This document shows, piece by piece, positions 2,944-30,849 of a stretch of DNA of 30,849 nt. A program made the position numbers and the translations under genes. The notes under the pieces are model-generated. The model had not been told where the DNA came from. It searched no databases and worked only from the letters and a program-made list of their open reading frames with translations. This DNA comes from a virus: the UHGV virus genome UHGV-0006354; one strand, written 5' to 3'. Position 1 is the stretch's first letter. Every line of letters starts with the position of its first letter.

Positions 2944-3453
2944 ATGTTTGATTTTCAGGTTTCCAAACATCCCCACTATGACGAAGCATGCCGCATTTTC
3001 GCACAGCGTCACAACATGGCGAAGCTGGCCGAGCGTGCAGGTATGAACGTTCAAACGTTACGTAACAAGCTCAACCCGGAACAGCCTCACCAGTTCACGC
3101 CGCCTGAATTGTGGCTGCTGACTGACCTGACCGAAGACTCAACCCTCATTGATGGTTTTTTAGCGCAGATTCACTGCCTACCATGCGTGCCGGTTAATGA
3201 GTTGGCTAAAGACAAATTGCAGTCTTATGTCATGCGCGCAATGCGTGAACTCGGCGAACTGGCGAGCGGCGCGGTATCTGATGAACGTCTGACCACTGCC
3301 CGTAAGCACAACATGATTGAAAGCGTTAACTCCGGCATTCGCATGTTGTCATTGTCGGCTCTGGCGCTGCATGCACGTCTGCAGACTAATCCAGCTATGT
3401 CGAGCGTGGTCGATACCATGAGCGGTATTGGCGCATCGTTTGGTCTGATTTGA
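2944..3453 (+). CDS. cII: CII-like lysogeny-establishment transcriptional activator (186 CII type)
   Basis: 169 aa from ATG 2944 (track ORF begins at TTG 2914); GAGGG Shine-Dalgarno; N-terminus MFDFQVSKHPHYDEACRIFAQRHNMAKLAERAGMNVQTLRNKLNPEQ matches my recollection of 186 CII. Confidence 0.7.
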   Translation: MFDFQVSKHPHYDEACRIFAQRHNMAKLAERAGMNVQTLRNKLNPEQPHQFTPPELWLLTDLTEDSTLIDGFLAQIHCLPCVPVNELAKDKLQSYVMRAMRELGELASGAVSDERLTTARKHNMIESVNSGIRMLSLSALALHARLQTNPAMSSVVDTMSGIGASFGLI

Positions 3454-3661: not shown

Positions 3662-3963
3662 AAGCGGGTGAACGTCTGGCTGGTCTCAATCATGTTGCCG
3701 AATTGCGCGCGAGATATTGGGGCGATAGCTGGAAAGAGGTTGAACGTTTTGTCGATGATATGCGCGATAAACGTGACCCACAATTTGAAGAAAATAATCG
3801 GGCGCTGGCCGCTATTTTCTTTCTGGCAAAAATACCGGCGGCTCGTCATGAACTCGAATTAAGTGAGCTGACTACTGACGAGAAAAAGGCGCTTATTACA
3901 GCGATGAATCATTTTCGTGCAGTAGTGAGCTTATTTCCCAAACGGCTAACCATGCCGAATTAA
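3625..3963 (+). CDS. Hypothetical early protein
   Basis: 112 aa; GGGGG Shine-Dalgarno before ATG; overlaps the previous ORF 3' end in another frame. Confidence 0.5.
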   Translation: MAIEAVSATVPLKAGERLAGLNHVAELRARYWGDSWKEVERFVDDMRDKRDPQFEENNRALAAIFFLAKIPAARHELELSELTTDEKKALITAMNHFRAVVSLFPKRLTMPN

Positions 3964-4480: not shown

Positions 4481-6703
4481 TTGGCTGTTCAATTCGCTTA
4501 TCCGTGGAACGTCCCACGGTCGGCAATCTCCAGCCCATACCTTACTTATGAGCAACAGCATCGCCGCGACCGTATGTTCGCGGCTTTGCTGCATGCAAAA
4601 AAGGTGCTTTCTCTCCAGCCCGACTGCGTGCGGTTAGATGTTTATCGCACTGCTGCGGTGCTGGAGCAAAATCAGGGTAGTCAACGAGCCAATGCATTTT
4701 TAATCAACTTCTGCAAAAAGGCATTGCCGCGTCTTGAACTGGTCGCAAAAAAATACGAATGCGCTGGTATCAATAGCAAGGTATCAACCGCTGTTTTTGG
4801 AAGTCATTTTGATACTCAGCAAATGCAATATCTGTCGTCACGCATGGTTAATATGGTCGCCCGATATAACCGTCTCCCGGATATGTCGCGCGCTGATGTT
4901 GACCTGTTGGCCGCTGATATTGCTAATTTCATTCGTGGTGAACTTGCCAACATTAATGACCACGGATTCGGCGAGCTTAAAACGCTGTACACCTGGTATA
5001 TTCGTGCTGGCTTTATTTCCCTCCAATTTAACGTTATCCCACCACATTGGGAGCGGGTTGAAAAAAAATATGTCGGTGCGGATGAAATCGCACCGGCTAT
5101 CGCCAAAATGTTTAACGATGGGTGGTGGCGCGGTCGTTTGCGCCGTGTTGCAGCTACGTGGCGCGAACACCTGCAAATTGCAGTCGGCAACGTCAGTAAG
5201 AAAAAAAACACTTACGCGAGTAAAAACTGCGTGACTGACTGGCGTGAACAAAAGCGCCGCACTCGTGAATTTCTCAAAGGTCTGGATCTCGAAGACGAAG
5301 ACGGCAACCGTATCAGCCTGATTGAAAAATATGATGGCTCAGTTGCTAACCCTGCGATTCGCCGCTGTGAGCTCATGACCCGCATTCGTGGGTTTGAAAA
5401 CATCTGTAATGAGCTCGGTTATGTCGGTGAGTTTTACACTCTAACCGCGCCGTCAAAATATCACGCCACGACTAAAGCCGGTTACCGTAACAGCAAATGG
5501 AGCGGTGCCAGCCCGGCTGACACGCAAAACTATCTAACCGGTATCTGGGCGCGTATCCGTGCCAAACTACATCGGGAAGATGTCCGTATTTTCGGTATTC
5601 GTGTCGCCGAGCCTCATCACGACGGCACTCCACACTGGCACATGCTGATGTTCATGCTGCCGGAAGATGTTGAATATGTTCGCTCCATCGTCCGTAAATA
5701 CGCATGGAAAGAAGACCGCCACGAACTGAAAAGCGATAAATCCAAAAAAGCACGTTTCCACGCCGAGTCCATTGACCCAGAGAAAGGGAGCGCAACCGGC
5801 TATGTTGCTAAATACATTTCAAAAAATATCGACGGTTATGCTCTCGATGGTGAAACCGATGATGAAAGCGGTGAGCTGCTGAAAGAGACAGCCCCCGCCG
5901 TTTCAGCATGGGCTGCGCGCTGGCACATCCGTCAGTTTCAGTTTATCGGTGGTGCGCCGGTGACGGTTTACCGTGAGTTGCGTCGCCTCGCTGATACCGA
6001 AACCGCGCACGGACTGAGCGTTGAGTTTGCCGCCGTCCATGATGCCGCCGACGCTGGTGACTGGGCTGGTTATGTTAATGCTCAGGGTGGGCCGTTTGTC
6101 CGTCGCGATGATTTACAGGTGCGCACACTGTATGAACCGCGTACCGAGCTTAATCAGTACGGTGAGGAAACAGTATGTATTAAGGGAGTCTACGATTCCT
6201 CCATAGGTGCAGGGAGTCCGATTTTAACCCGGCTCACTCAGTGGAAGATTGTTCCGAAGCGTGCTGTTGATTTGGCCGTTGACCTTCAGGACGGCAAAGC
6301 CGTCCCTCGGAGTTCTGTCAATAACTGTACGGGAAGCGAAAGCGATCCACCGATACTGGATTTAACAAAACCACTGAGTCGGCGTGAAAGACGAGAATTG
6401 ACCAACCGACTCAGGAAGCAAAAGCCAGCAGCACGGCGAAAATTCATCCACGGAACGGATGAGCAAAACGCAGCTATAGCTAAAACTATCGACGAGATAC
6501 ATCTGACAACCGGCATTAATATCAGCCGGGGCGAAGCCCTGCACCTGATGGCCGGTGGTAAAAGTTGTTTTGATGGTAAATGGCTACGCGGAACGGCCAA
6601 AGGAGAAATATTTTCCGCAGCACCATCGCATGAGGCTAAAGCTCGGAAAATCCTTAATCGTGTTGCGGCGATGGCTGAAGCATCAAAACCAATACATGAG
6701 TAA
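4481..6703 (+). CDS. A: Rolling-circle replication initiation endonuclease (P2 gpA family)
   Basis: 740 aa; TTG start with N-terminus MAV..AYPWNVPR like P2 A; conserved EPHHDGTPHWHMLMF HUH-type motif and YVAKYISKNIDGY tyrosine motif. Confidence 0.85.
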   Translation: MAVQFAYPWNVPRSAISSPYLTYEQQHRRDRMFAALLHAKKVLSLQPDCVRLDVYRTAAVLEQNQGSQRANAFLINFCKKALPRLELVAKKYECAGINSKVSTAVFGSHFDTQQMQYLSSRMVNMVARYNRLPDMSRADVDLLAADIANFIRGELANINDHGFGELKTLYTWYIRAGFISLQFNVIPPHWERVEKKYVGADEIAPAIAKMFNDGWWRGRLRRVAATWREHLQIAVGNVSKKKNTYASKNCVTDWREQKRRTREFLKGLDLEDEDGNRISLIEKYDGSVANPAIRRCELMTRIRGFENICNELGYVGEFYTLTAPSKYHATTKAGYRNSKWSGASPADTQNYLTGIWARIRAKLHREDVRIFGIRVAEPHHDGTPHWHMLMFMLPEDVEYVRSIVRKYAWKEDRHELKSDKSKKARFHAESIDPEKGSATGYVAKYISKNIDGYALDGETDDESGELLKETAPAVSAWAARWHIRQFQFIGGAPVTVYRELRRLADTETAHGLSVEFAAVHDAADAGDWAGYVNAQGGPFVRRDDLQVRTLYEPRTELNQYGEETVCIKGVYDSSIGAGSPILTRLTQWKIVPKRAVDLAVDLQDGKAVPRSSVNNCTGSESDPPILDLTKPLSRRERRELTNRLRKQKPAARRKFIHGTDEQNAAIAKTIDEIHLTTGINISRGEALHLMAGGKSCFDGKWLRGTAKGEIFSAAPSHEAKARKILNRVAAMAEASKPIHE

Positions 6704-6777
6704 TTCATATCCATATCATGCACATACAGCAATCGCTCTATTCGTTTTTTTTCTTCCCATCTTTTGCCAATACGTGC

Positions 6778-6797
6778 TACTGTATAAATATACAGTA
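6778..6797 (+). promoter_or_regulatory. LexA operator (SOS box) 20 nt upstream of the 6817 ORF
   Basis: TACTGTATAAATATACAGTA; CTGT-N8-ACAG at 6780-6795, near-perfect match to the E. coli LexA consensus. Confidence 0.7.
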
Positions 6798-6816
6798 ACC
6801 CTATGGGAGGGATTTC

Positions 6817-6999
6817 ATGGTTGGCGAACATTTCAGCCGAACGCAGCAAAAGTGGGCTTGTGTGCAATTTATTGCCGAGGTATCTCTGATTGCAAACTGC
6901 AAGCCATCAGACTTAAAGCTCGCGCTCACTCTCATTGCAGACCTAGCAAACAGCGAAAATAACGAAACCGAAGATGATAATTTTTATAAGGCTGATTAG
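6817..6999 (+). CDS. LexA-controlled small protein, candidate Tum-like antirepressor module
   Basis: 60 aa; GGGAGG Shine-Dalgarno; directly downstream of the SOS box; ends at TAG in the same frame as the following DinI-like ORF. Confidence 0.5.
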   Translation: MVGEHFSRTQQKWACVQFIAEVSLIANCKPSDLKLALTLIADLANSENNETEDDNFYKAD

Positions 7000-7002
7000 A
7001 TT

Positions 7003-7236
7003 ATGAGAATCAATATCACGTTGGATAAAGAGCAAAAAATTAGTCAGACAACGTTGGATGCACTTGAGGCTGAGCTGTACCGCAATCTTCAACCTATTTA
7101 CCCAAAGACTGCTATCCGCATTCGTAAGGGCTCAGCTAATGGCGTTGAGCTAAGCGGTTTGAAACTGGACGAAGATAAAAAACGAGTGATGGAAATCATG
7201 CAGCAGGTATGGGAGGACGATAGCTGGCTGCATTAA
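7003..7236 (+). CDS. DinI-family protein
   Basis: 77 aa; MRINITLDKEQKIS...ALEAEL...KKRVMEIMQQVWEDDSWLH follows the E. coli DinI pattern (MRIEV..., ...ISEILQETWESADDW). Confidence 0.7.
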   Translation: MRINITLDKEQKISQTTLDALEAELYRNLQPIYPKTAIRIRKGSANGVELSGLKLDEDKKRVMEIMQQVWEDDSWLH

Positions 7237-7240
7237 CAAA

Positions 7241-7307
7241 CGCCGTCGGTGCTGAATCTTGCTTTCAGTGCTGACGGGGTTGAACCACTGGCTCCGCGAG
7301 ACGTTAG
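7241..7307 (+). repeat. Direct repeat copy A (67 bp, about 82 percent identical to copy B)
   Basis: Starts 5 nt after the DinI-like stop; conserved hairpin CTGAA-N7-TTCAG. Confidence 0.6.
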
Positions 7308-7431
7308 TTCTACCTTTCAAACTTTCTCGATGTTTTATTGGTTACACACCGGTGAATAATGGGACGTTACCTTAGAGGATTTTATAGTGGCGCTTTGACA
7401 GCACTGAATAAAATTCATTGAGGGCGATAAT

Positions 7432-7641
7432 ATGCATCGACTACCGGGCGAAATTCCGCAGCACAAAACTAAAAGCATAAAACTGATGGCTATCGTTCAT
7501 CGCTTGCAGACGATAATGGTCAATGAGAATCTGACGCCAGCAGAATTAGTCGGGTGTGCAGAAGTAGTCAGAGATAACTACGGCAAGCTGGACGATATCA
7601 GCAGACCGACACATTACGCACCGCCACCACATCGACCATAG
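7432..7641 (+). CDS. Hypothetical protein
   Basis: 69 aa; GAGGG Shine-Dalgarno; bracketed by repeat copies A and B. Confidence 0.45.
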   Translation: MHRLPGEIPQHKTKSIKLMAIVHRLQTIMVNENLTPAELVGCAEVVRDNYGKLDDISRPTHYAPPPHRP

Positions 7642-7645
7642 ATAA

Positions 7646-7712
7646 CGCCGCCGGAGCTGAAACTCGCTTTCAGGTCTGGCGGGGTTGAACAACGAGCTAC
7701 GCGAGGCGTTAG
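7646..7712 (+). repeat. Direct repeat copy B (67 bp)
   Basis: Starts 5 nt after the 7432-7641 stop; hairpin CTGAAA-N5-TTTCAG with compensatory change relative to copy A. Confidence 0.6.
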
Positions 7713-7774
7713 CTGGTCATAGCGTCGCAAATGCTTTAGCCGTCTGCTGGTTAAATAATTCGAGGTTTTTGGAC

Positions 7775-7969
7775 ATGCAAAATCCCCTTTCATCGAAAAA
7801 AGACCCGTTTGCCGATTGGGCAAAGAATCTGACTTTAATGGCTTTAAATAACGACCTGAGCTCTCGCGAGGTGGAAAGCTACACCGCAAAAATGGTCGGG
7901 CAGGCCAGTAAAGATGAGCTTTCAGCCGTTATCAAACACCTATTAAATCACATCAGAATGCGCAAATAA
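7775..7969 (+). CDS. Hypothetical protein
   Basis: Track ORF 7685-7969 begins at TTG inside repeat B; internal ATG at 7775 (MQNPLSSKK...) gives 64 aa; start uncertain. Confidence 0.35.
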   Translation: MQNPLSSKKDPFADWAKNLTLMALNNDLSSREVESYTAKMVGQASKDELSAVIKHLLNHIRMRK

Positions 7970-7984
7970 GAGGAGCTATATAAT

Positions 7985-8086
7985 ATGTTATCTCTCGTTT
8001 ATGAAAATCCGTGGACGACGGTTTTTCTGCTGATTGTTGCCAGTTGTTGTCTCAACAGTATTATTGGCGCATTGCGCAACAAGTGA
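7985..8086 (+). CDS. Small hydrophobic peptide (33 aa), single predicted transmembrane helix
   Basis: MLSLVYENPWTTVFLLIVASCCLNSIIGALRNK; AGGAG Shine-Dalgarno 8 nt upstream; below the ORF-track size cut-off; terminator follows. Confidence 0.35.
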   Translation: MLSLVYENPWTTVFLLIVASCCLNSIIGALRNK

Positions 8087-8108
8087 CCTCAATAAATCTG
8101 ATTCAAAT

Positions 8109-8133
8109 CGGCACCAAAAATGCCGGTTTTTTT
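8109..8133 (+). terminator. Rho-independent terminator ending the early/SOS region before cos
   Basis: CGGCA-CCAAAAA-TGCCG hairpin followed by seven T (8127-8133). Confidence 0.6.
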
Positions 8134-8293
8134 ATGCCATTTTTCCGCGAATTTCCCGTTTTTTAGCTATGCATGCAACAGGTGCATGGTTTTGCATGCG
8201 TCAGGCTTGCCCGTTCAGGCCGTACGCCACCAGAGCTGGCGCAGAACCAGAGTGGTCATGCAACTGCATTAAAACCGCCCCATAAAGCGGGCA

Positions 8294-8312
8294 GGCGTGG
8301 CGGGGAAAGCAT
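8294..8312. other. cos cohesive-end site (P2/186 type)
   Basis: GGCGTGGCGGGGAAAGCAT, matching the 19-nt P2/186 cohesive end as I recall it (P2 GGCGAGGCGGGGAAAGCAC); lies between the replication module and portal gene as expected. Confidence 0.6.
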
Positions 8313-8459
8313 TGCGCGCCAGCGGTGGTGCGTAATAATAAAAATTATCGTCTGATCGCGTCGTAATGGCGCGCGCGTGGTTGCTGTCGGCTCGTTGGTG
8401 GTCTGGTGTGGTCGTGCGCGCGTGGCGCGTCTGAGGCGTGATGCTGGGTGTGTATGGAA

Positions 8460-8482
8460 AAGCCGCTTAGAGACAGCGGCTT
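8460..8482 (-). terminator. Hairpin downstream of the minus-strand cargo gene (terminator-like, no U-tract)
   Basis: AAGCCGCT-N7-AGCGGCTT, 8-bp stem. Confidence 0.3.
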
Positions 8483-8533
8483 AACAATAGTGGTGGGATT
8501 TAAACTGCTAATAATGTTTCTACAAACATTAAC

Positions 8534-9517
8534 CTAATTTACATGTATGTAGAGTTCACTGTCACTAGACCAGTCGGGGCACTCTAAAGCAAGCCCAAAC
8601 TGCTTGTATATTTCATCAATGACTAATGTTATCTCAAGATAATCATCAAAACCTGTAATGCGTTGATCATTGAATTTTTCATAAAGATTCTGAAATGCAG
8701 CTCCTAACTCTGATAATTGATTCCTTATTTTTGAGTTGGATAGTGTAAGGGCTAGTTTTGGGTCGTATTCATTAATATTGATGTTTAGAGAATGGACGTA
8801 ACCTATCGCATAAGCATAGGAGTTGATAATTAGCTTGAAGCGTTTTTTTGCTTCAAGATACATTTCATTCAGAGAAATATTGCCTCTTTTATAGTTCAGA
8901 GTGAGATTTTCAATCTCGTCAGACACTTCATTTACAACAGTATCAAGATTCTCTAGAAATAAATCGATAGTCTCTTGAGGGGCTGACCACGAAGACATGT
9001 AATTAGCAAGATATTCAGACCATGCACGAGTGGCTGTGATAAGCAGCGCGTCGCCATACTCGTTGACTGTAAAGTTTTGGGCTAAGCATGTTAGTAAGTT
9101 TTTTTCATGTACGTGCACTAACTCATGGTGAATGCGATGGATGACTGCGCGGTATCCTTCTTCATTTAATTTCAGGAAGCTACCATCATTAAAAAGCTCA
9201 CCAAAAAAATCAATAGATAGCACAAGGGTATATTCTTCACATAGCCCATCGCTGCCAATTTTTGTTACTAATTGCCCGACGGCTGCGCCCTGTTTGCTAT
9301 TGGTAAATGAACTAGGGGATTTGTGTTGGTAAATGGAAGTCACATTTTGAAGAGCTTCACTGAAATTATAGGAGACAACCACGCATTTTAATTTTGAGAT
9401 ATCAAGATTGAGATTTTTTGTTAAGACTCGAATAGCTTCTAGCGTGAAGTTACCGATATTATTTGCTTCTTGCTCAGTAGTGAAACCTTCGAGGGTTATT
9501 TTAAAATCAGTTTCCAA
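8534..9517 (-). CDS. AT-rich cargo gene: HExxH-motif (zinc-metallopeptidase-like) protein of unknown function, inserted between cos and portal gene Q
   Basis: 327 aa, TTG start with GGAG Shine-Dalgarno; HELVH at residues 131-135; no signal peptide or transmembrane segment; plausible sigma70 promoter (TTGAAG-17-TATAGT on minus strand, plus about 9557-9585). Confidence 0.8.
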   Translation of the reverse strand: METDFKITLEGFTTEQEANNIGNFTLEAIRVLTKNLNLDISKLKCVVVSYNFSEALQNVTSIYQHKSPSSFTNSKQGAAVGQLVTKIGSDGLCEEYTLVLSIDFFGELFNDGSFLKLNEEGYRAVIHRIHHELVHVHEKNLLTCLAQNFTVNEYGDALLITATRAWSEYLANYMSSWSAPQETIDLFLENLDTVVNEVSDEIENLTLNYKRGNISLNEMYLEAKKRFKLIINSYAYAIGYVHSLNININEYDPKLALTLSNSKIRNQLSELGAAFQNLYEKFNDQRITGFDDYLEITLVIDEIYKQFGLALECPDWSSDSELYIHVN

Positions 9518-9615: not shown

Positions 9616-10662
9616 TTATTCCGGGTTGTCGAGGGTGTACTCTTTGAACCTGATGACCTCCATGCCGAGCCAGTCGTTTACCTCCCTGAACCTGTCCTGC
9701 AGGGGTGACAGCTCGTTACGCACGAATACCTTTGCCACCTTCTCAACGTCGCCGAGTGAGCCGATATTCTCGGGCTTGCCGCCCATGAGCTGGAACGGCA
9801 CGCGGTGCGCGTCCATCAGGTCGGCGGCGCTGGCTTTCTTAATGTTGAAAAAGTCATCCTTTGTGGCGACCTCGCTCAGTGGCACGATTTTGATGCCGTC
9901 CGGTTTTCCGCCGGGGGCGTAGAAAAACAGGTTCTTAAAGTTGCCGAGTCCCTTCGAGTTACGCATCGCCTCGCGCAGCGATTCGACGTCGGTCGCACTT
10001 TGCGCCGGGTCAGTCACATACATGATGTAGCCTGCGTGCGCGCCGTTCTGATAATACTTGCGGCGGAACAGCGTCGCGGATTCATTCAGCCAGGCGGAAT
10101 TAAGCGCGCTGAGATATTCCGGCAGACCGTAAATCTCCTGATTAATGTCGGGCTCCAGCAGGTGAAACACGGTATCAGGCGCGAACTCGTGCGGCTGGGT
10201 GAAGTTTTCCACAAACCAGAAAATCGAATCGTCGACTCCGCGTCGGGTGTATTTGGCTGGCGAGGCCAGCAGTTTGATTAACTGGCCGGTGACGCTGTGG
10301 CGCTGCTCAAGAAAGGCGTTACCGAACACCAGATAATCGAGCGCAAAGCGGCTGAAATCCTGACGGGATAACAACGGGTGCGGAATGTAGGTGCTCGCGA
10401 GCACGTTACGCTTAACATAAATTGGCGAGCTGTGATGCACGGCAGAGCGCAGGCTCTTTGCCAGCCCTGAGAAGCTGACCGGCGGCTCGTACCATTTGCC
10501 GTTACTGATGCACTCGACGTAATCCAGAATGTCGCGCTTATCGAGTACCGGCACCGGCTCGCCGAAGGTGAACGCTGTCGTTTTTGGCGGTGCGCTGGCG
10601 GTCAGTTGTTGTGGTTTGCTGGCCTTTTGTGCGTTGGCTTTACGGGATTTTTGTTTACCCAT
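9616..10662 (-). CDS. Q: Portal protein (P2 gpQ family)
   Basis: 348 aa (P2 Q 344 aa); Lys-rich N-terminus MGKQKSRKANAQKASK; position between cos and terminase. Confidence 0.9.
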   Translation of the reverse strand: MGKQKSRKANAQKASKPQQLTASAPPKTTAFTFGEPVPVLDKRDILDYVECISNGKWYEPPVSFSGLAKSLRSAVHHSSPIYVKRNVLASTYIPHPLLSRQDFSRFALDYLVFGNAFLEQRHSVTGQLIKLLASPAKYTRRGVDDSIFWFVENFTQPHEFAPDTVFHLLEPDINQEIYGLPEYLSALNSAWLNESATLFRRKYYQNGAHAGYIMYVTDPAQSATDVESLREAMRNSKGLGNFKNLFFYAPGGKPDGIKIVPLSEVATKDDFFNIKKASAADLMDAHRVPFQLMGGKPENIGSLGDVEKVAKVFVRNELSPLQDRFREVNDWLGMEVIRFKEYTLDNPE

Positions 10663-29683: not shown

Positions 29684-30849
29684 TAACGGGGATGACAATT
29701 GACGCCGGTGCCAGCCTTGCACCGGCTTTTATGCTGACGCTGAACAGTCAGGACATTACCAGCAACTTCAGCGACCGGCTGATTTCTCTCACCATGACGG
29801 ACAATAGGGGCTTTGAAGCTGACCAGCTCGACATTGAGCTCGATGACACCGATGGGAAAGTCGAGTTACCCCTGCGCGGGGCAGTGCTGACGTTGTGGCT
29901 TGGCTGGCAGGGTTCGGCGCTGCTGAATAAGGGGGATTTTACGGTCGATGAGATTGAGCACCGGGGGGCTCCTGATACCCTGACCATCCGGGCGCGCAGC
30001 GCGGACTTTCGCGGCACGCTAAATTCCAGGCGTGAAGAGTCATGGCACGACACTACCATCGGCGAACTGGTCAGTACCATCGCAAAGCGCAACAAACTGA
30101 CGGCCAGCATTGCGGAATCGCTGAAAAAAATCCCGGTACCGCATATCGACCAGTCGCAGGAATCCGACGCGGTATTTTTGAGTCGACTGGCTGACCGCAA
30201 CGGGGCAACGGTATCGGTGAAGGCAGGGAAACTGTTGTTTCTGAAAGCCGGTAGTGCGATGACGGCCAGCGGCAAACCCGTCCCGCAAATGACGCTGACC
30301 CGCAGTGATGGTGACCGTCATCAGTTTGCCATTGCCGACCGTGGGGCTTATACCGGCGTCACTGCTAAATGGTTGCACACCAAAGACCCGAAGCCACAAA
30401 AGCAGAAAGTAACGCTGAAACGCAAGCCAAAAGAGAAGCACCTGCGCGCACTGGAACACCCAAAAGCAAAGCCGGTCAGCAAAAAGACAAAGGTCAAAAA
30501 AGAACAGGAAGCACGTGAGGGTGAGTACATGGCCGGTGAAGCCGATAACGTGCTGGCGCTGACGACGGTCTACGCCTCAAAGGCACAGGCGATGCGCGCC
30601 GCTCAGGCTAAGTGGGATAAACTGCAGCGAGGCGTTGCGGAGTTTTCAATCACACTGGCGCTAGGGCGAGCGGATTTATTTCCTGAGACGCCTGTACGCG
30701 TGTCAGGCTTTAAGCGCGTCATAGACGAGCAGGCATGGTTAATCAGCAAGGTGACCCACAACCTCAATAATAACGGTTTCACGACGGGCTTAGAGCTTGA
30801 GGTTAAACTCTCCGATGTGGAGTACAGCTCAGAAGAAAATGAGGAGTGA
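29680..30849 (+). CDS. D: Tail protein D
   Basis: 389 aa (P2 D 387 aa); stop codon is the last triplet of the window. Confidence 0.85.
   Translation: MITGMTIDAGASLAPAFMLTLNSQDITSNFSDRLISLTMTDNRGFEADQLDIELDDTDGKVELPLRGAVLTLWLGWQGSALLNKGDFTVDEIEHRGAPDTLTIRARSADFRGTLNSRREESWHDTTIGELVSTIAKRNKLTASIAESLKKIPVPHIDQSQESDAVFLSRLADRNGATVSVKAGKLLFLKAGSAMTASGKPVPQMTLTRSDGDRHQFAIADRGAYTGVTAKWLHTKDPKPQKQKVTLKRKPKEKHLRALEHPKAKPVSKKTKVKKEQEAREGEYMAGEADNVLALTTVYASKAQAMRAAQAKWDKLQRGVAEFSITLALGRADLFPETPVRVSGFKRVIDEQAWLISKVTHNLNNNGFTTGLELEVKLSDVEYSSEENEE

Follow-up and report, generated by a model that had tools for sequence, protein, structure and literature searches.

The virus genome UHGV-0006354, whose whole 30,849-nt stretch is the window of this analysis, carries two copies of a 69-nt element that we call E. 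Our data indicate that both are members of a widespread family located at the left border of the hypervariable locus of P2-family phages, between the replication gene gpA and the portal gene, and that each member consists of a hairpin followed by a nearly invariant 3' tail. Where the last backbone cistron (the last gene before the exchangeable cargo) ends, selection clearly keeps the + strand hairpin and the specific tail, within transcripts driven by LexA-controlled or early promoters. The reading that we favour, with a confidence somewhat short of even, is that E acts in cis on the RNA, as a stabiliser or processing element behind the backbone cistrons, and doubles as a recombination joint. 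An earlier note on this DNA had pointed to the repeat pair and to a short hairpin; the invariant tail inside the element and the family at the border of the locus go beyond it.

Repeat finding in the window gave one direct-repeat family, with copies on the + strand at 7239-7307 (E1, the internal copy) and 7644-7712 (E2, the terminal copy at the cargo border), 69 nt long, 83% identical and spaced by 405 nt. The covariance model built for the family scores E1 at 90.8 bits (E-value 4e-27) and E2 at 96.3 bits (6e-29), and nhmmer gives E-values of about 1e-20 for the window copies. The pair at 7241-7307 and 7646-7712 reported in the earlier note is thus real and far above chance; the element runs 2 nt further on the 5' side. 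No third site above ~12 bits was found by the covariance model on the + strand of the 30.8-kb window with the filters off. The E1 hairpin covers 7239-7281, with 18 positions in each arm and a 7-nt loop, and its tail at 7282-7307 is partly degenerate, reading GAACCACTGGCTCCGCGAGACGTTAG vs GAACAACGAGC-NNN-GCGAGGCGTTAG in the family. The E2 hairpin covers 7644-7686, with 19 positions in each arm and the loop CUCGC, followed by a canonical tail at 7687-7712. The palindromes CTGAA-N7-TTCAG and CTGAAA-N5-TTTCAG, previously described as hairpins of 5-6 bp, are present, though they are merely the tips of these 18- and 19-position stems. The compensatory change that had been assigned to them was misplaced, as the A to T difference in the first copy just opens one pair; the genuine one between E1 and E2 lies lower in the stem (GUCGG...CUGAC vs GCCGG...CUGGC), where U-A and C-G replace each other.

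The hairpin is supported across the family by extensive covariation, and hence a functional single-strand structure (the earlier note had suggested one in RNA or DNA) is backed much more strongly than could be seen from two copies. It has 17-19 bp, opens with AAC and closes with GUU. A first set of 74 distinct copies shows 94% pairing over the 13 central pairs, 6 of which are changed on both sides. We gathered a second set of copies through the tail, which makes the set unbiased for the stem, and aligned it to the model, giving 78 distinct rows. This set holds 117 different stem sequences, nearly all of which fold as hairpins. A covariance check across homologues had been proposed earlier, and in these rows 14 of the 18 stem pairs are changed on both sides, with 204 compensatory cells vs 60 +/- 9 in column shuffles; 93% of the cells are paired, vs at most 52% with the 3' partners displaced by 1-3 columns, and one stem pair displays all six standard pair types. 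Fitting the alignment to the model favours the structure, and a MAFFT-based alignment with RNAalifold yields the same helix, RNAalifold predicting the AAC...GUU-closed hairpin independently. In phage Cartapus the stem sequence is almost wholly different, yet 16 of the 19 positions pair and the tail is unchanged, so that what is kept of the stem is its shape, and of the tail its sequence.

The strand that folds is the gene-sense one. Stem cells of the family contain 167 G.U vs 23 A.C combinations, which identifies the + strand as the folding strand. The predicted RNA folding energies of the + strand are -31.5 kcal/mol for E1 and -39.8 kcal/mol for E2 (z -3.2 and -5.5), vs z of -1.0 and -3.3 for the complementary strand, and the covariance model gives 96 and 91 bits on the + strand vs 23 and 16 bits on the - strand. 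The stem starts with AAC in 190 of the 194 copies, and the three closing AAC/GUU pairs never vary. The tail 3' of the hairpin has the form GAACAACGAG-N3-5-GCGAGGCGUUAG, and in the first data set, whose selection did not involve the tail, most of its positions are at least 90% conserved. Conservation ends directly after GTTAG.

Several other structures and functions of the same sequence were considered and set aside. The 5' AACGCC can pair with GGGGUU, giving the extended hairpin, or with a 3' GGCGUU, giving a three-way junction; it is 94% paired either way, and neither pair counts nor covariation separate these two lower-stem alternatives. In the junction (AACGCC/GGCGTT plus a GGGG/CCCC hairpin) the third helix is 77% paired and has no double changes, the position-4 G to C variants break it and repair the extended hairpin, and RNAalifold favours the latter; the junction may still exist as an alternative conformer. 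A pseudoknot between loop and tail (CUYGC with GCGAG) is 94% pairable, but its changes are almost solely single ones of wobble type, and it gains no covariation support. Peptide or read-through coding was rejected: the frame continuing from the upstream stop is the sole open one in canonical copies, diverged copies carry stops in it, and the stem changes are compensatory, not synonymous. A LexA box inside the hairpin (CTG-N11-CAG) has the wrong spacing and a G+C-rich centre on inspection. An origin or pseudo-origin for the HUH nickase gpA is also rejected, as E matches the nick region at ~6305-6350 (CTCGGAGTYCTGTCAATAACTGT) over no more than 5-8-mers. Matches of the tail as a cis-antisense to phage sequence stand at chance level.

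The position of E relative to its neighbours is as constant as its structure. E is always co-oriented with the upstream gene, and the distance from the stop codon to the first A of the stem is exactly 2 nt in 114 of 181 copies and 1-4 nt in 138 of them. Both window copies follow a stop codon, as was noted before: the AAC of E1 begins 2 nt past the dinI stop (7234-7236) and that of E2 begins 2 nt past the gp37 stop (7639-7641). The genes upstream of the 181 copies are from seven unrelated families, i.e. DinI (88), gp37-like (52), Orf97 (27) and four minor ones; a separate tally found a gp37-like gene upstream in 59 of 122 copies. Clustering of the flanks gave 8 upstream clusters vs 23 unrelated downstream clusters. 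The next open reading frame (ORF) is co-oriented and 25-170 nt away in ~18 of the 23 downstream contexts, indicating that E is intercistronic. A convergent gene ends 2-3 nt past E in four downstream contexts, and a terminator lies within 21-23 nt of E only in the context typical of 186 and RCIP0057 (in 186 this is t95b, at 23 nt). The order in P2-type phages is gpA - orf91 - gp37-like - E - cargo, which makes E the left edge of the hypervariable (defence) hotspot of old and tin, and gp37 plus E is a conserved unit in these phages.

Mosaic breakpoints coincide with the ends of E. We collected 173 local alignments (BLAST high-scoring segment pairs) between positions 6400-8500 of the window and ~125 related loci, and observed that 11 of them end at 7307-7309, the 3' end of E1, and 48 at 7712-7721, the 3' end of E2; 24 start at 7430-7432, the gp37 ATG, and 8 at 7718. 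The same downstream modules are found behind different upstream genes and the reverse, and one identical 69-mer occurs behind dinI, orf97 and gp37 and ahead of at least two different downstream sequences. The identity of E is 87%, compared with 72% in the adjoining gp37-like coding DNA, and between phages of the Peduovirus and Eganvirus types it is ~85%, with gpA proteins that are 38% identical. E is therefore a short conserved stretch flanked on both sides by alternative non-homologous modules, with breakpoints at its edges, and the module-boundary linker, one of the roles proposed in the earlier note, receives strong support from these breakpoints and from the identical 69-mers amid unrelated genes and cargo. 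The further idea, that two linkers mediated acquisition of the gene at 7432-7641, survives in its module-boundary part. The locus is not simply a gene inserted between two linkers, since gp37 plus E is itself a conserved unit. Relatives with one copy and without the intervening ORF, which the note had suggested looking for, do exist, e.g. Klebsiella phage RCIP0057 (tumA-dinI-E-terminator) and 186 (tum-orf97-E-t95b).

In the 21 two-copy loci of the first data set the paired copies always bracket gp37, at a distance of ~390-425 nt. In 19 of these 21 pairs the terminal copy has the better fit to the profile, and in PHB48 (1985-2041) and two further loci, L078 (675-731) and L086 (6124-6180), the internal copy upstream of gp37 has lost most of its hairpin and kept the ends of the element. 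Internal copies thus tend to decay. The E-genes-E layout is not limited to gp37, as locus L249 (E. coli STEC2017-197, NZ_CP075663.1) has a canonical copy at 2947-3015 and a degenerate one at 4629-4712 (51 bits, tail decayed) that bracket two co-oriented cargo ORFs, one of them Orf97-sized. A contig of a different layout, L311 (IMGVR_UViG_3300011853_000021), carries inverted copies 2.3 kb apart at 3852-3936 (-) and 6231-6315 (+), with 64 and 76 bits, which may be a rearrangement or a chimeric assembly.

The earlier note had also suggested looking for the repeat in related genomes, and it is present in many phages of the P2/186 family. BLAST with one copy found 67 phage records, including 186, PSP3, Wphi, P2-EC58 and peduoviruses of Yersinia, Klebsiella, Erwinia and Salmonella; the Cartapus-type subfamily comprises 36 further records, SopEPhi among them, and two pattern scans of viral contigs gave ~200 copies. 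In SopEPhi (AY319521) E occupies ~9245-9315 and comes directly behind the dinI-like orf11. Among 5426 complete E. coli genomes, E was found in 526, at a median of 1 place and never more than 3 per genome; the places inspected are all P2-like prophages, with E between gpA and the portal gene. We also noticed that many "complete" E. coli chromosome records (e.g. NZ_CP075663.1) begin exactly at the gpA of a P2-like prophage, with E at 2624-2691 or 2947-3015; the software that sets the start probably took the phage "replication" gene for the chromosomal start gene. A degenerate 16-base pattern run on genome contigs gave mostly chance matches in unrelated phyla, and only the Citrobacter and Rosenbergiella loci are real (99 and 67 bits). 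E is absent from P2, where orf91 is directly followed by tin and old, and from Cronobacter phage ESSI-2, Salmonella SEN5, Haemophilus HP2, one Vibrio and one Aeromonas peduovirus.

E is apparently undescribed, although an earlier description is possible. The whole window has no match in Rfam 15 at gathering thresholds, and positions 6700-8500 at E-values up to 10 give just miRNA- and snoRNA-type matches that are far below threshold and meaningless. E is unannotated in all four records inspected (186, PSP3, Wphi and SopEPhi); in that of 186, which is heavily annotated, its place is 30344-30413, past the orf97 stop and ahead of t95b, the annotated terminator of p95. A full-text literature search for the E sequence returned unrelated primers only. 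Rfam, the GenBank annotations inspected and the searchable literature yielded no description, in a search that did not extend to Nilsson et al. 2004, Odegrip et al. 2006 and Brumby et al. 1996. E belongs to a familiar class, the structured intergenic motifs of phages and operons and the module linkers, and is not a new principle.

The window phage is a member of the P2 family, of the 186/PSP3 type, with Salmonella phages SI22, SW9, SEN1 and PSP3 and Escherichia phage vB_EcoM-613R3 (gpA 99.7% identical) as its nearest relatives. The gene for the 740-aa replication nickase gpA spans 4481-6703 and contains, at ~6305-6350 on the + strand, the rolling-circle origin/nick region (CTCGGAGTTCTGTCAATAACTGT...), which is the same as in 186 over 45 nt and lies ~0.9 kb upstream of E1. 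A putative LexA box, TACTGTATAAATATACAGTA (6778-6797, +), read from the sequence, overlaps a p95-type SOS promoter in the same layout as the annotated p95/LexA site of 186. It is followed on the + strand by a TumA-like ORF of 60 aa (6817-6999; PSP3 tumA, phrog_1993), the first cistron of the SOS operon, and by the 77-aa DinI/TumB ORF (7003-7236; PF06183, E-value 7e-24), which forms the unit dinI plus E1; the repeats indeed lie downstream of an SOS module, as had been claimed. The 124-nt + strand spacer between E1 and gp37 (7308-7431) is kept in all two-copy loci (downstream cluster 1, 21 loci), and a consensus scan predicts no promoter or terminator in it. It contains a perfect TTGACA at ~7396-7401, with no matching -10 at the correct spacing. 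The gp37-like ORF (69 aa, 7432-7641, +), where the alignment starts at 7430-7432 cluster, equals PSP3 gp37 and belongs to phrog_11386, a family with no assigned function.

Past the border, where homology to FSL SP-004 begins at 7718, the variable segment opens with a 64-aa + strand gene at 7775-7969 (phrog_2454, function unassigned). An ORF of 94 aa at 7685-7969 (+) has a TTG start within E2 and is in frame with this gene; the extension is taken as an artefact, since the PHROG profile is fully covered (1-64/64) from the ATG at 7775. The final cistron ahead of the terminator is a very hydrophobic 33-aa ORF (7985-8086, +; MLSLVYENPWTTVFLLIVASCCLNSIIGALRNK) with no Pfam or PHROG match, and a promoter-like site on the opposite strand (8007 to 7980) overlaps its start. 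It is reminiscent of the small SOS-induced membrane toxins of the TisB/DinQ type. An intrinsic terminator with a 9-bp stem and a T-run (8105-8137, +) ends the operon; it is the counterpart of t95b, and the terminator regions of 186 and Erwinia phage EtG align with it. From the LexA-boxed promoter up to 8105, consensus scans predict neither a further promoter nor a terminator, and hence both copies would be expected on one SOS-induced transcript; together with the annotation of 186, this suggests that E1 and E2 share a LexA-controlled message. The linear right end of 186 aligns to 8293 and the cut falls at ~8293/8294, next to the 19-mer GGCGTGGCGGGGAAAGCAT at 8294-8312, which we take to be the cos cohesive-end sequence. 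Between cos (~8294) and the portal gene (9616-10662, -) lies a 327-aa ORF on the - strand (8534-9517; phrog_11743, function unassigned), a candidate cargo or defence gene as it sits in the hotspot between gpA and portal, on the far side of cos.

How could E work in this operon? We speculate that the rightward SOS (p95) or early (Pe/pR) mRNA would fold the E hairpin right after the stop codon of the last backbone cistron, be it dinI, a gp37-like gene, orf97 or another, and that its likeliest job would be to define and process mRNA 3' ends. Whether 3' to 5' exonucleases or an endonucleolytic cut in or beside E were at work, the upstream cistrons would end up capped by a stable hairpin, and this capping could uncouple expression of the backbone (Tum/DinI/early) from the changing cargo, its terminators and its convergent genes. 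The tail would then serve as a recognition site, possibly for a single-strand cut of the RNase E type, for RNase III acting on the stem or for an RNA-binding protein; a cut by RNase E would fall within GUUGAACAAC. At the DNA level E would act as the left-side homology patch, at which cargo modules and gene-plus-E units cross over through ordinary homologous recombination, with the terminator/cos region as the right-hand patch. The argument for a crossover point is that E is kept near identical amid unrelated neighbours and is the only good left-side homology of the gpA-to-portal locus. Its 69 bp at 85-100% identity exceed the minimal length for RecA- or Red-type recombination. The two window copies may accordingly be the 3' ends of two units, dinI plus E1 and gp37 plus E2, joined in tandem, and as direct repeats they would permit the loss of gp37 by recombination.

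This reading builds directly on what is shown: a family of elements with its hairpin, its folding strand and its place behind stop codons, its location in a LexA-controlled transcript (as annotated in 186) and its match with mosaic breakpoints. That the active molecule would be RNA rather than + strand single-stranded DNA, that it would work by stabilisation or processing, and that the crossovers would be of the RecA/Red type rather than site-specific are the parts that we infer. There are precedents for some of its steps: in Klebsiella a cut by RNase E in the LexA-controlled dinI mRNA liberates a stable 3' RNA (PMC10907235), and in the 186-like prophage BTP5 no transcript is more abundant than that of tum, according to a transcriptome paper that gives no detail on the E region (PMC7067206). 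Other points weigh against it. The mechanism is wholly conjectural, the literature searched giving no transcript ends, cleavages or half-lives for this region. The G.U asymmetry fixes the strand and not the molecule, and + strand single-stranded DNA gives the same pattern. A plain stabiliser needs no invariance of the AAC/GUU stem base or of the 26-nt tail, which implies that something sequence-specific takes part. E is dispensable, as shown by its absence from P2, ESSI-2, SEN5, HP2 and the Vibrio and Aeromonas phages. FSL SP-004 and the loci L087, L109 and L030 have no co-oriented ORF abutting E, and E may not be transcribed there. Finally, homologous and site-specific exchange would both leave sharp breakpoints where a conserved patch ends.

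Similar elements are known from other systems. The hairpins of repetitive extragenic palindromes and bacterial interspersed mosaic elements (REP/BIME), e.g. the REP between malE and malF, are, like E, extragenic, transcribed and placed just past stop codons inside operons, without a U-tract; they were proposed to block 3' exonucleases and so to cause differential expression of upstream and downstream cistrons, and such repeats are also recombination substrates. E agrees with them in being an extragenic hairpin within transcribed operons. It differs in having no sequence similarity to REP, no GTAG/RAYT association, an extra invariant 26-nt tail, and only 1-3 places per genome, in P2-like prophages at the inspected sites, instead of hundreds of dispersed host copies. 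The RNase III sites of T7 (R0.3-R1.3) and lambda sib are likewise related hairpins between the cistrons of polycistronic phage mRNAs, with stems of nearly two helical turns, where processing leaves a protective 3' hairpin upstream (T7) or triggers decay (sib); E would do the one or the other if it were cut. E has a predicted double-stranded stem of this length (17-19 bp) in a p95-type operon, but the stems are nearly perfect with G.U pairs, lack the internal loop typical of T7, and are followed by a tail that has no counterpart there. The "boundary sequences" or linkers of lambdoid phages, reportedly treated by Clark et al. 2001 within a modular theory, are also short conserved stretches between non-homologous modules and were proposed as crossover points. 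Compared with these, E is longer, its structure is selected on one strand, and it is restricted to one specific locus of the Peduoviridae, the gpA-portal hotspot.

Among the alternatives to an RNA 3'-end element, the one we rate highest, though still unlikely, is a gate for transcription, in which E would act as a factor-dependent attenuator, pause site or terminator, or as a processive antiterminator of the put/nut/rrn type, and control read-through into the cargo. E lies exactly between backbone cistrons and cargo and offers a strong hairpin followed by a conserved single-stranded segment, the two pairings of AACGCC (94% both ways) resemble those of switches, and a ribosome terminating at the stop codon 2 nt upstream would open the stem base. 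However, no covariation discriminates between these lower-stem alternatives, and E does not end the operon, as the 186 terminator comes 23 nt later and two cistrons follow E2. A classical intrinsic attenuator, named among the possible roles in the earlier note, is unlikely since no U-tract follows the hairpin, which is succeeded by GAACAACGAG; the terminator scan finds terminators at 8105-8137 and elsewhere, none at E, and this includes the - strand, where an intrinsic terminator could have served convergent cargo. The tail segment UUGAACAA resembles the 3' half of boxA (UUUAACAA), the full boxA consensus being GCUCUUUAACAA. In the tail as it reads, GGUUGAACAACGAG, just the UU-AACAA half is similar and the 5' half (GCUC) is absent, so that E lacks what defines a nut or rrn site, and Rfam gives no antiterminator or attenuator match. 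An alternative hypothesis, rather less probable, could be that E yields a trans-acting small RNA from the 3' untranslated region, comparable to DinR, whose invariant tail would be the seed pairing with host or phage mRNAs in the SOS response. An invariant single-stranded tail beside a covarying hairpin is the typical pattern of seed plus scaffold, and the terminator 21-23 nt past E in the 186/RCIP0057-type context would give a ~120-nt 3' RNA from a LexA-controlled mRNA, as DinR does. In most contexts, however, the next terminator is hundreds of nt away (in the window 393 nt from E2 and ~800 nt from E1), so the window copies lack the end at an intrinsic terminator that such an RNA has, and a search within the phage found no target of above-chance complementarity to the tail. 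DinR is a precedent for function of such 3' regions (PMC10907235), as RNase E processes the 3' part of a LexA-controlled dinI message to this stable RNA. But its source is the dinI of the chromosome, it contains the terminator, and its pairing with ftsZ uses a stretch specific to Klebsiella, whereas E follows many genes and usually has no adjacent terminator. The chromosomal origin also rules out DinR as a derivative of E.

The remaining alternatives take E as DNA. In one of them, about as improbable as the small RNA, E would be a recombination site similar to the attC site (59-base element, 59-be) of integrons, where a + strand single-stranded hairpin defines mobile gene-plus-E cassettes for a site-specific enzyme at the hotspot border. 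Units of this kind exist (dinI plus E, gp37 plus E, orf97 plus E), as do tandem layouts (E-gp37-E in 21 loci, and E, two cargo ORFs and a second E in L249); like attC, E comes immediately after an ORF, marks borders of exchangeable genes, forms an imperfect palindrome of 60-70 nt with a variable, covarying stem, and is conserved up to GTTAG. AAC...GUU are the sole invariant stem bases, beside a small conserved mismatch, with the remaining stem covarying, and the R'' and R' boxes of attC carry AAC/GTT triplets. The paper by Nilsson et al. 2004 names site-specific recombination at this locus in its title. The attC site acts through its bottom strand. In E it is the coding-sense, or top, strand that folds (167:23), and AAC...GUU (190/194) are the outermost pairs at the stem base instead of the inner end of a 7-bp R box; such R boxes are absent, no assignment of L boxes or extrahelical bases succeeds, and the hairpin does not include the conserved tail. 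Two copies are the maximum at any locus, the cargo is normally bounded by E on the left only, with the terminator/cos/portal region as its right border and L249 with its degenerate site as the exception, and no integron-type integrase or other recombinase is consistently linked: there is no IntI, attI or Pc, and the region from gpA to portal has no integrase in the loci examined. E also lacks similarity to the gpA nick site, and 69 bp at the identity given above already suffice for RecA/Red recombination. A phage cassette system proper, with gene-plus-E units moved by a structure-specific reaction on the folded + strand and the AAC/GTT stem base as crossover site, is more doubtful again; if true, it would mean an integron-like acquisition of defence and SOS-module genes by P2-family phages without an integron integrase. 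Hardly probable is a single-strand initiation signal, a lagging-strand origin or a loading site for primosome or helicase on the strand displaced during gpA rolling-circle replication. A hairpin with conserved flanking sequence is the architecture of single-strand origins and initiation signals, and E offers an orientation-specific ~70-nt hairpin and flank, in fixed orientation to gene A and 0.5-1.5 kb from the origin; against this, P2 and many gpA-encoding relatives have no E (just 67 of 383 phage records with a gpA homologue have a BLAST match), the juxtaposition to stop codons and the duplication around gp37 are left unexplained, and replication of P2/186 presumably runs leftward from the origin, which would displace the other strand. 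We give equally little credence to E being a hitch-hiking or selfish remnant with no function of its own, i.e. a relic linker or something like a miniature inverted-repeat transposable element (MITE), kept similar by frequent recombination. It is dispensable in P2 and others, and internal copies decay, as in the E1 tail, the hairpin deletions of PHB48, L078 and L086 and the poorer fit in 19 of 21 pairs. But hundreds of compensatory double substitutions over 117 stem variants need selection on structure, and an element confined to a single locus in a single phage family, with 1-3 places in a genome and no target-site duplications, is not dispersed as a MITE is.

The gpA-to-portal locus of P2-like prophages is among the best-studied hotspots of anti-phage defence (Rousset 2022, PMC9122126; NAR 2026, PMC13586616). 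In these two papers the hotspot is defined by its flanking protein genes and recombination is seen to swap the cargo very fast, with the exchange sequence left unnamed; no repeat or hairpin at the hotspot is mentioned in them or in bioRxiv 10.1101/2024.10.15.618418. E is a precise structured landmark at the left edge of this hotspot, even in the model phages 186, PSP3, Wphi and SopEPhi. Its covariance model is a marker of one-base resolution for delimiting hotspot cargo in prophages, and E is a candidate new Rfam family. As a motif it is well supported and testable, and the quality of the covariation together with its location at a defence hotspot justify an experiment. If E is indeed an RNA 3'-end or processing element and a recombination joint, it would account for expression of the backbone genes (Tum/DinI/early) independently of whatever cargo is plugged in, and would show where the exchange of cargo across genera is anchored.

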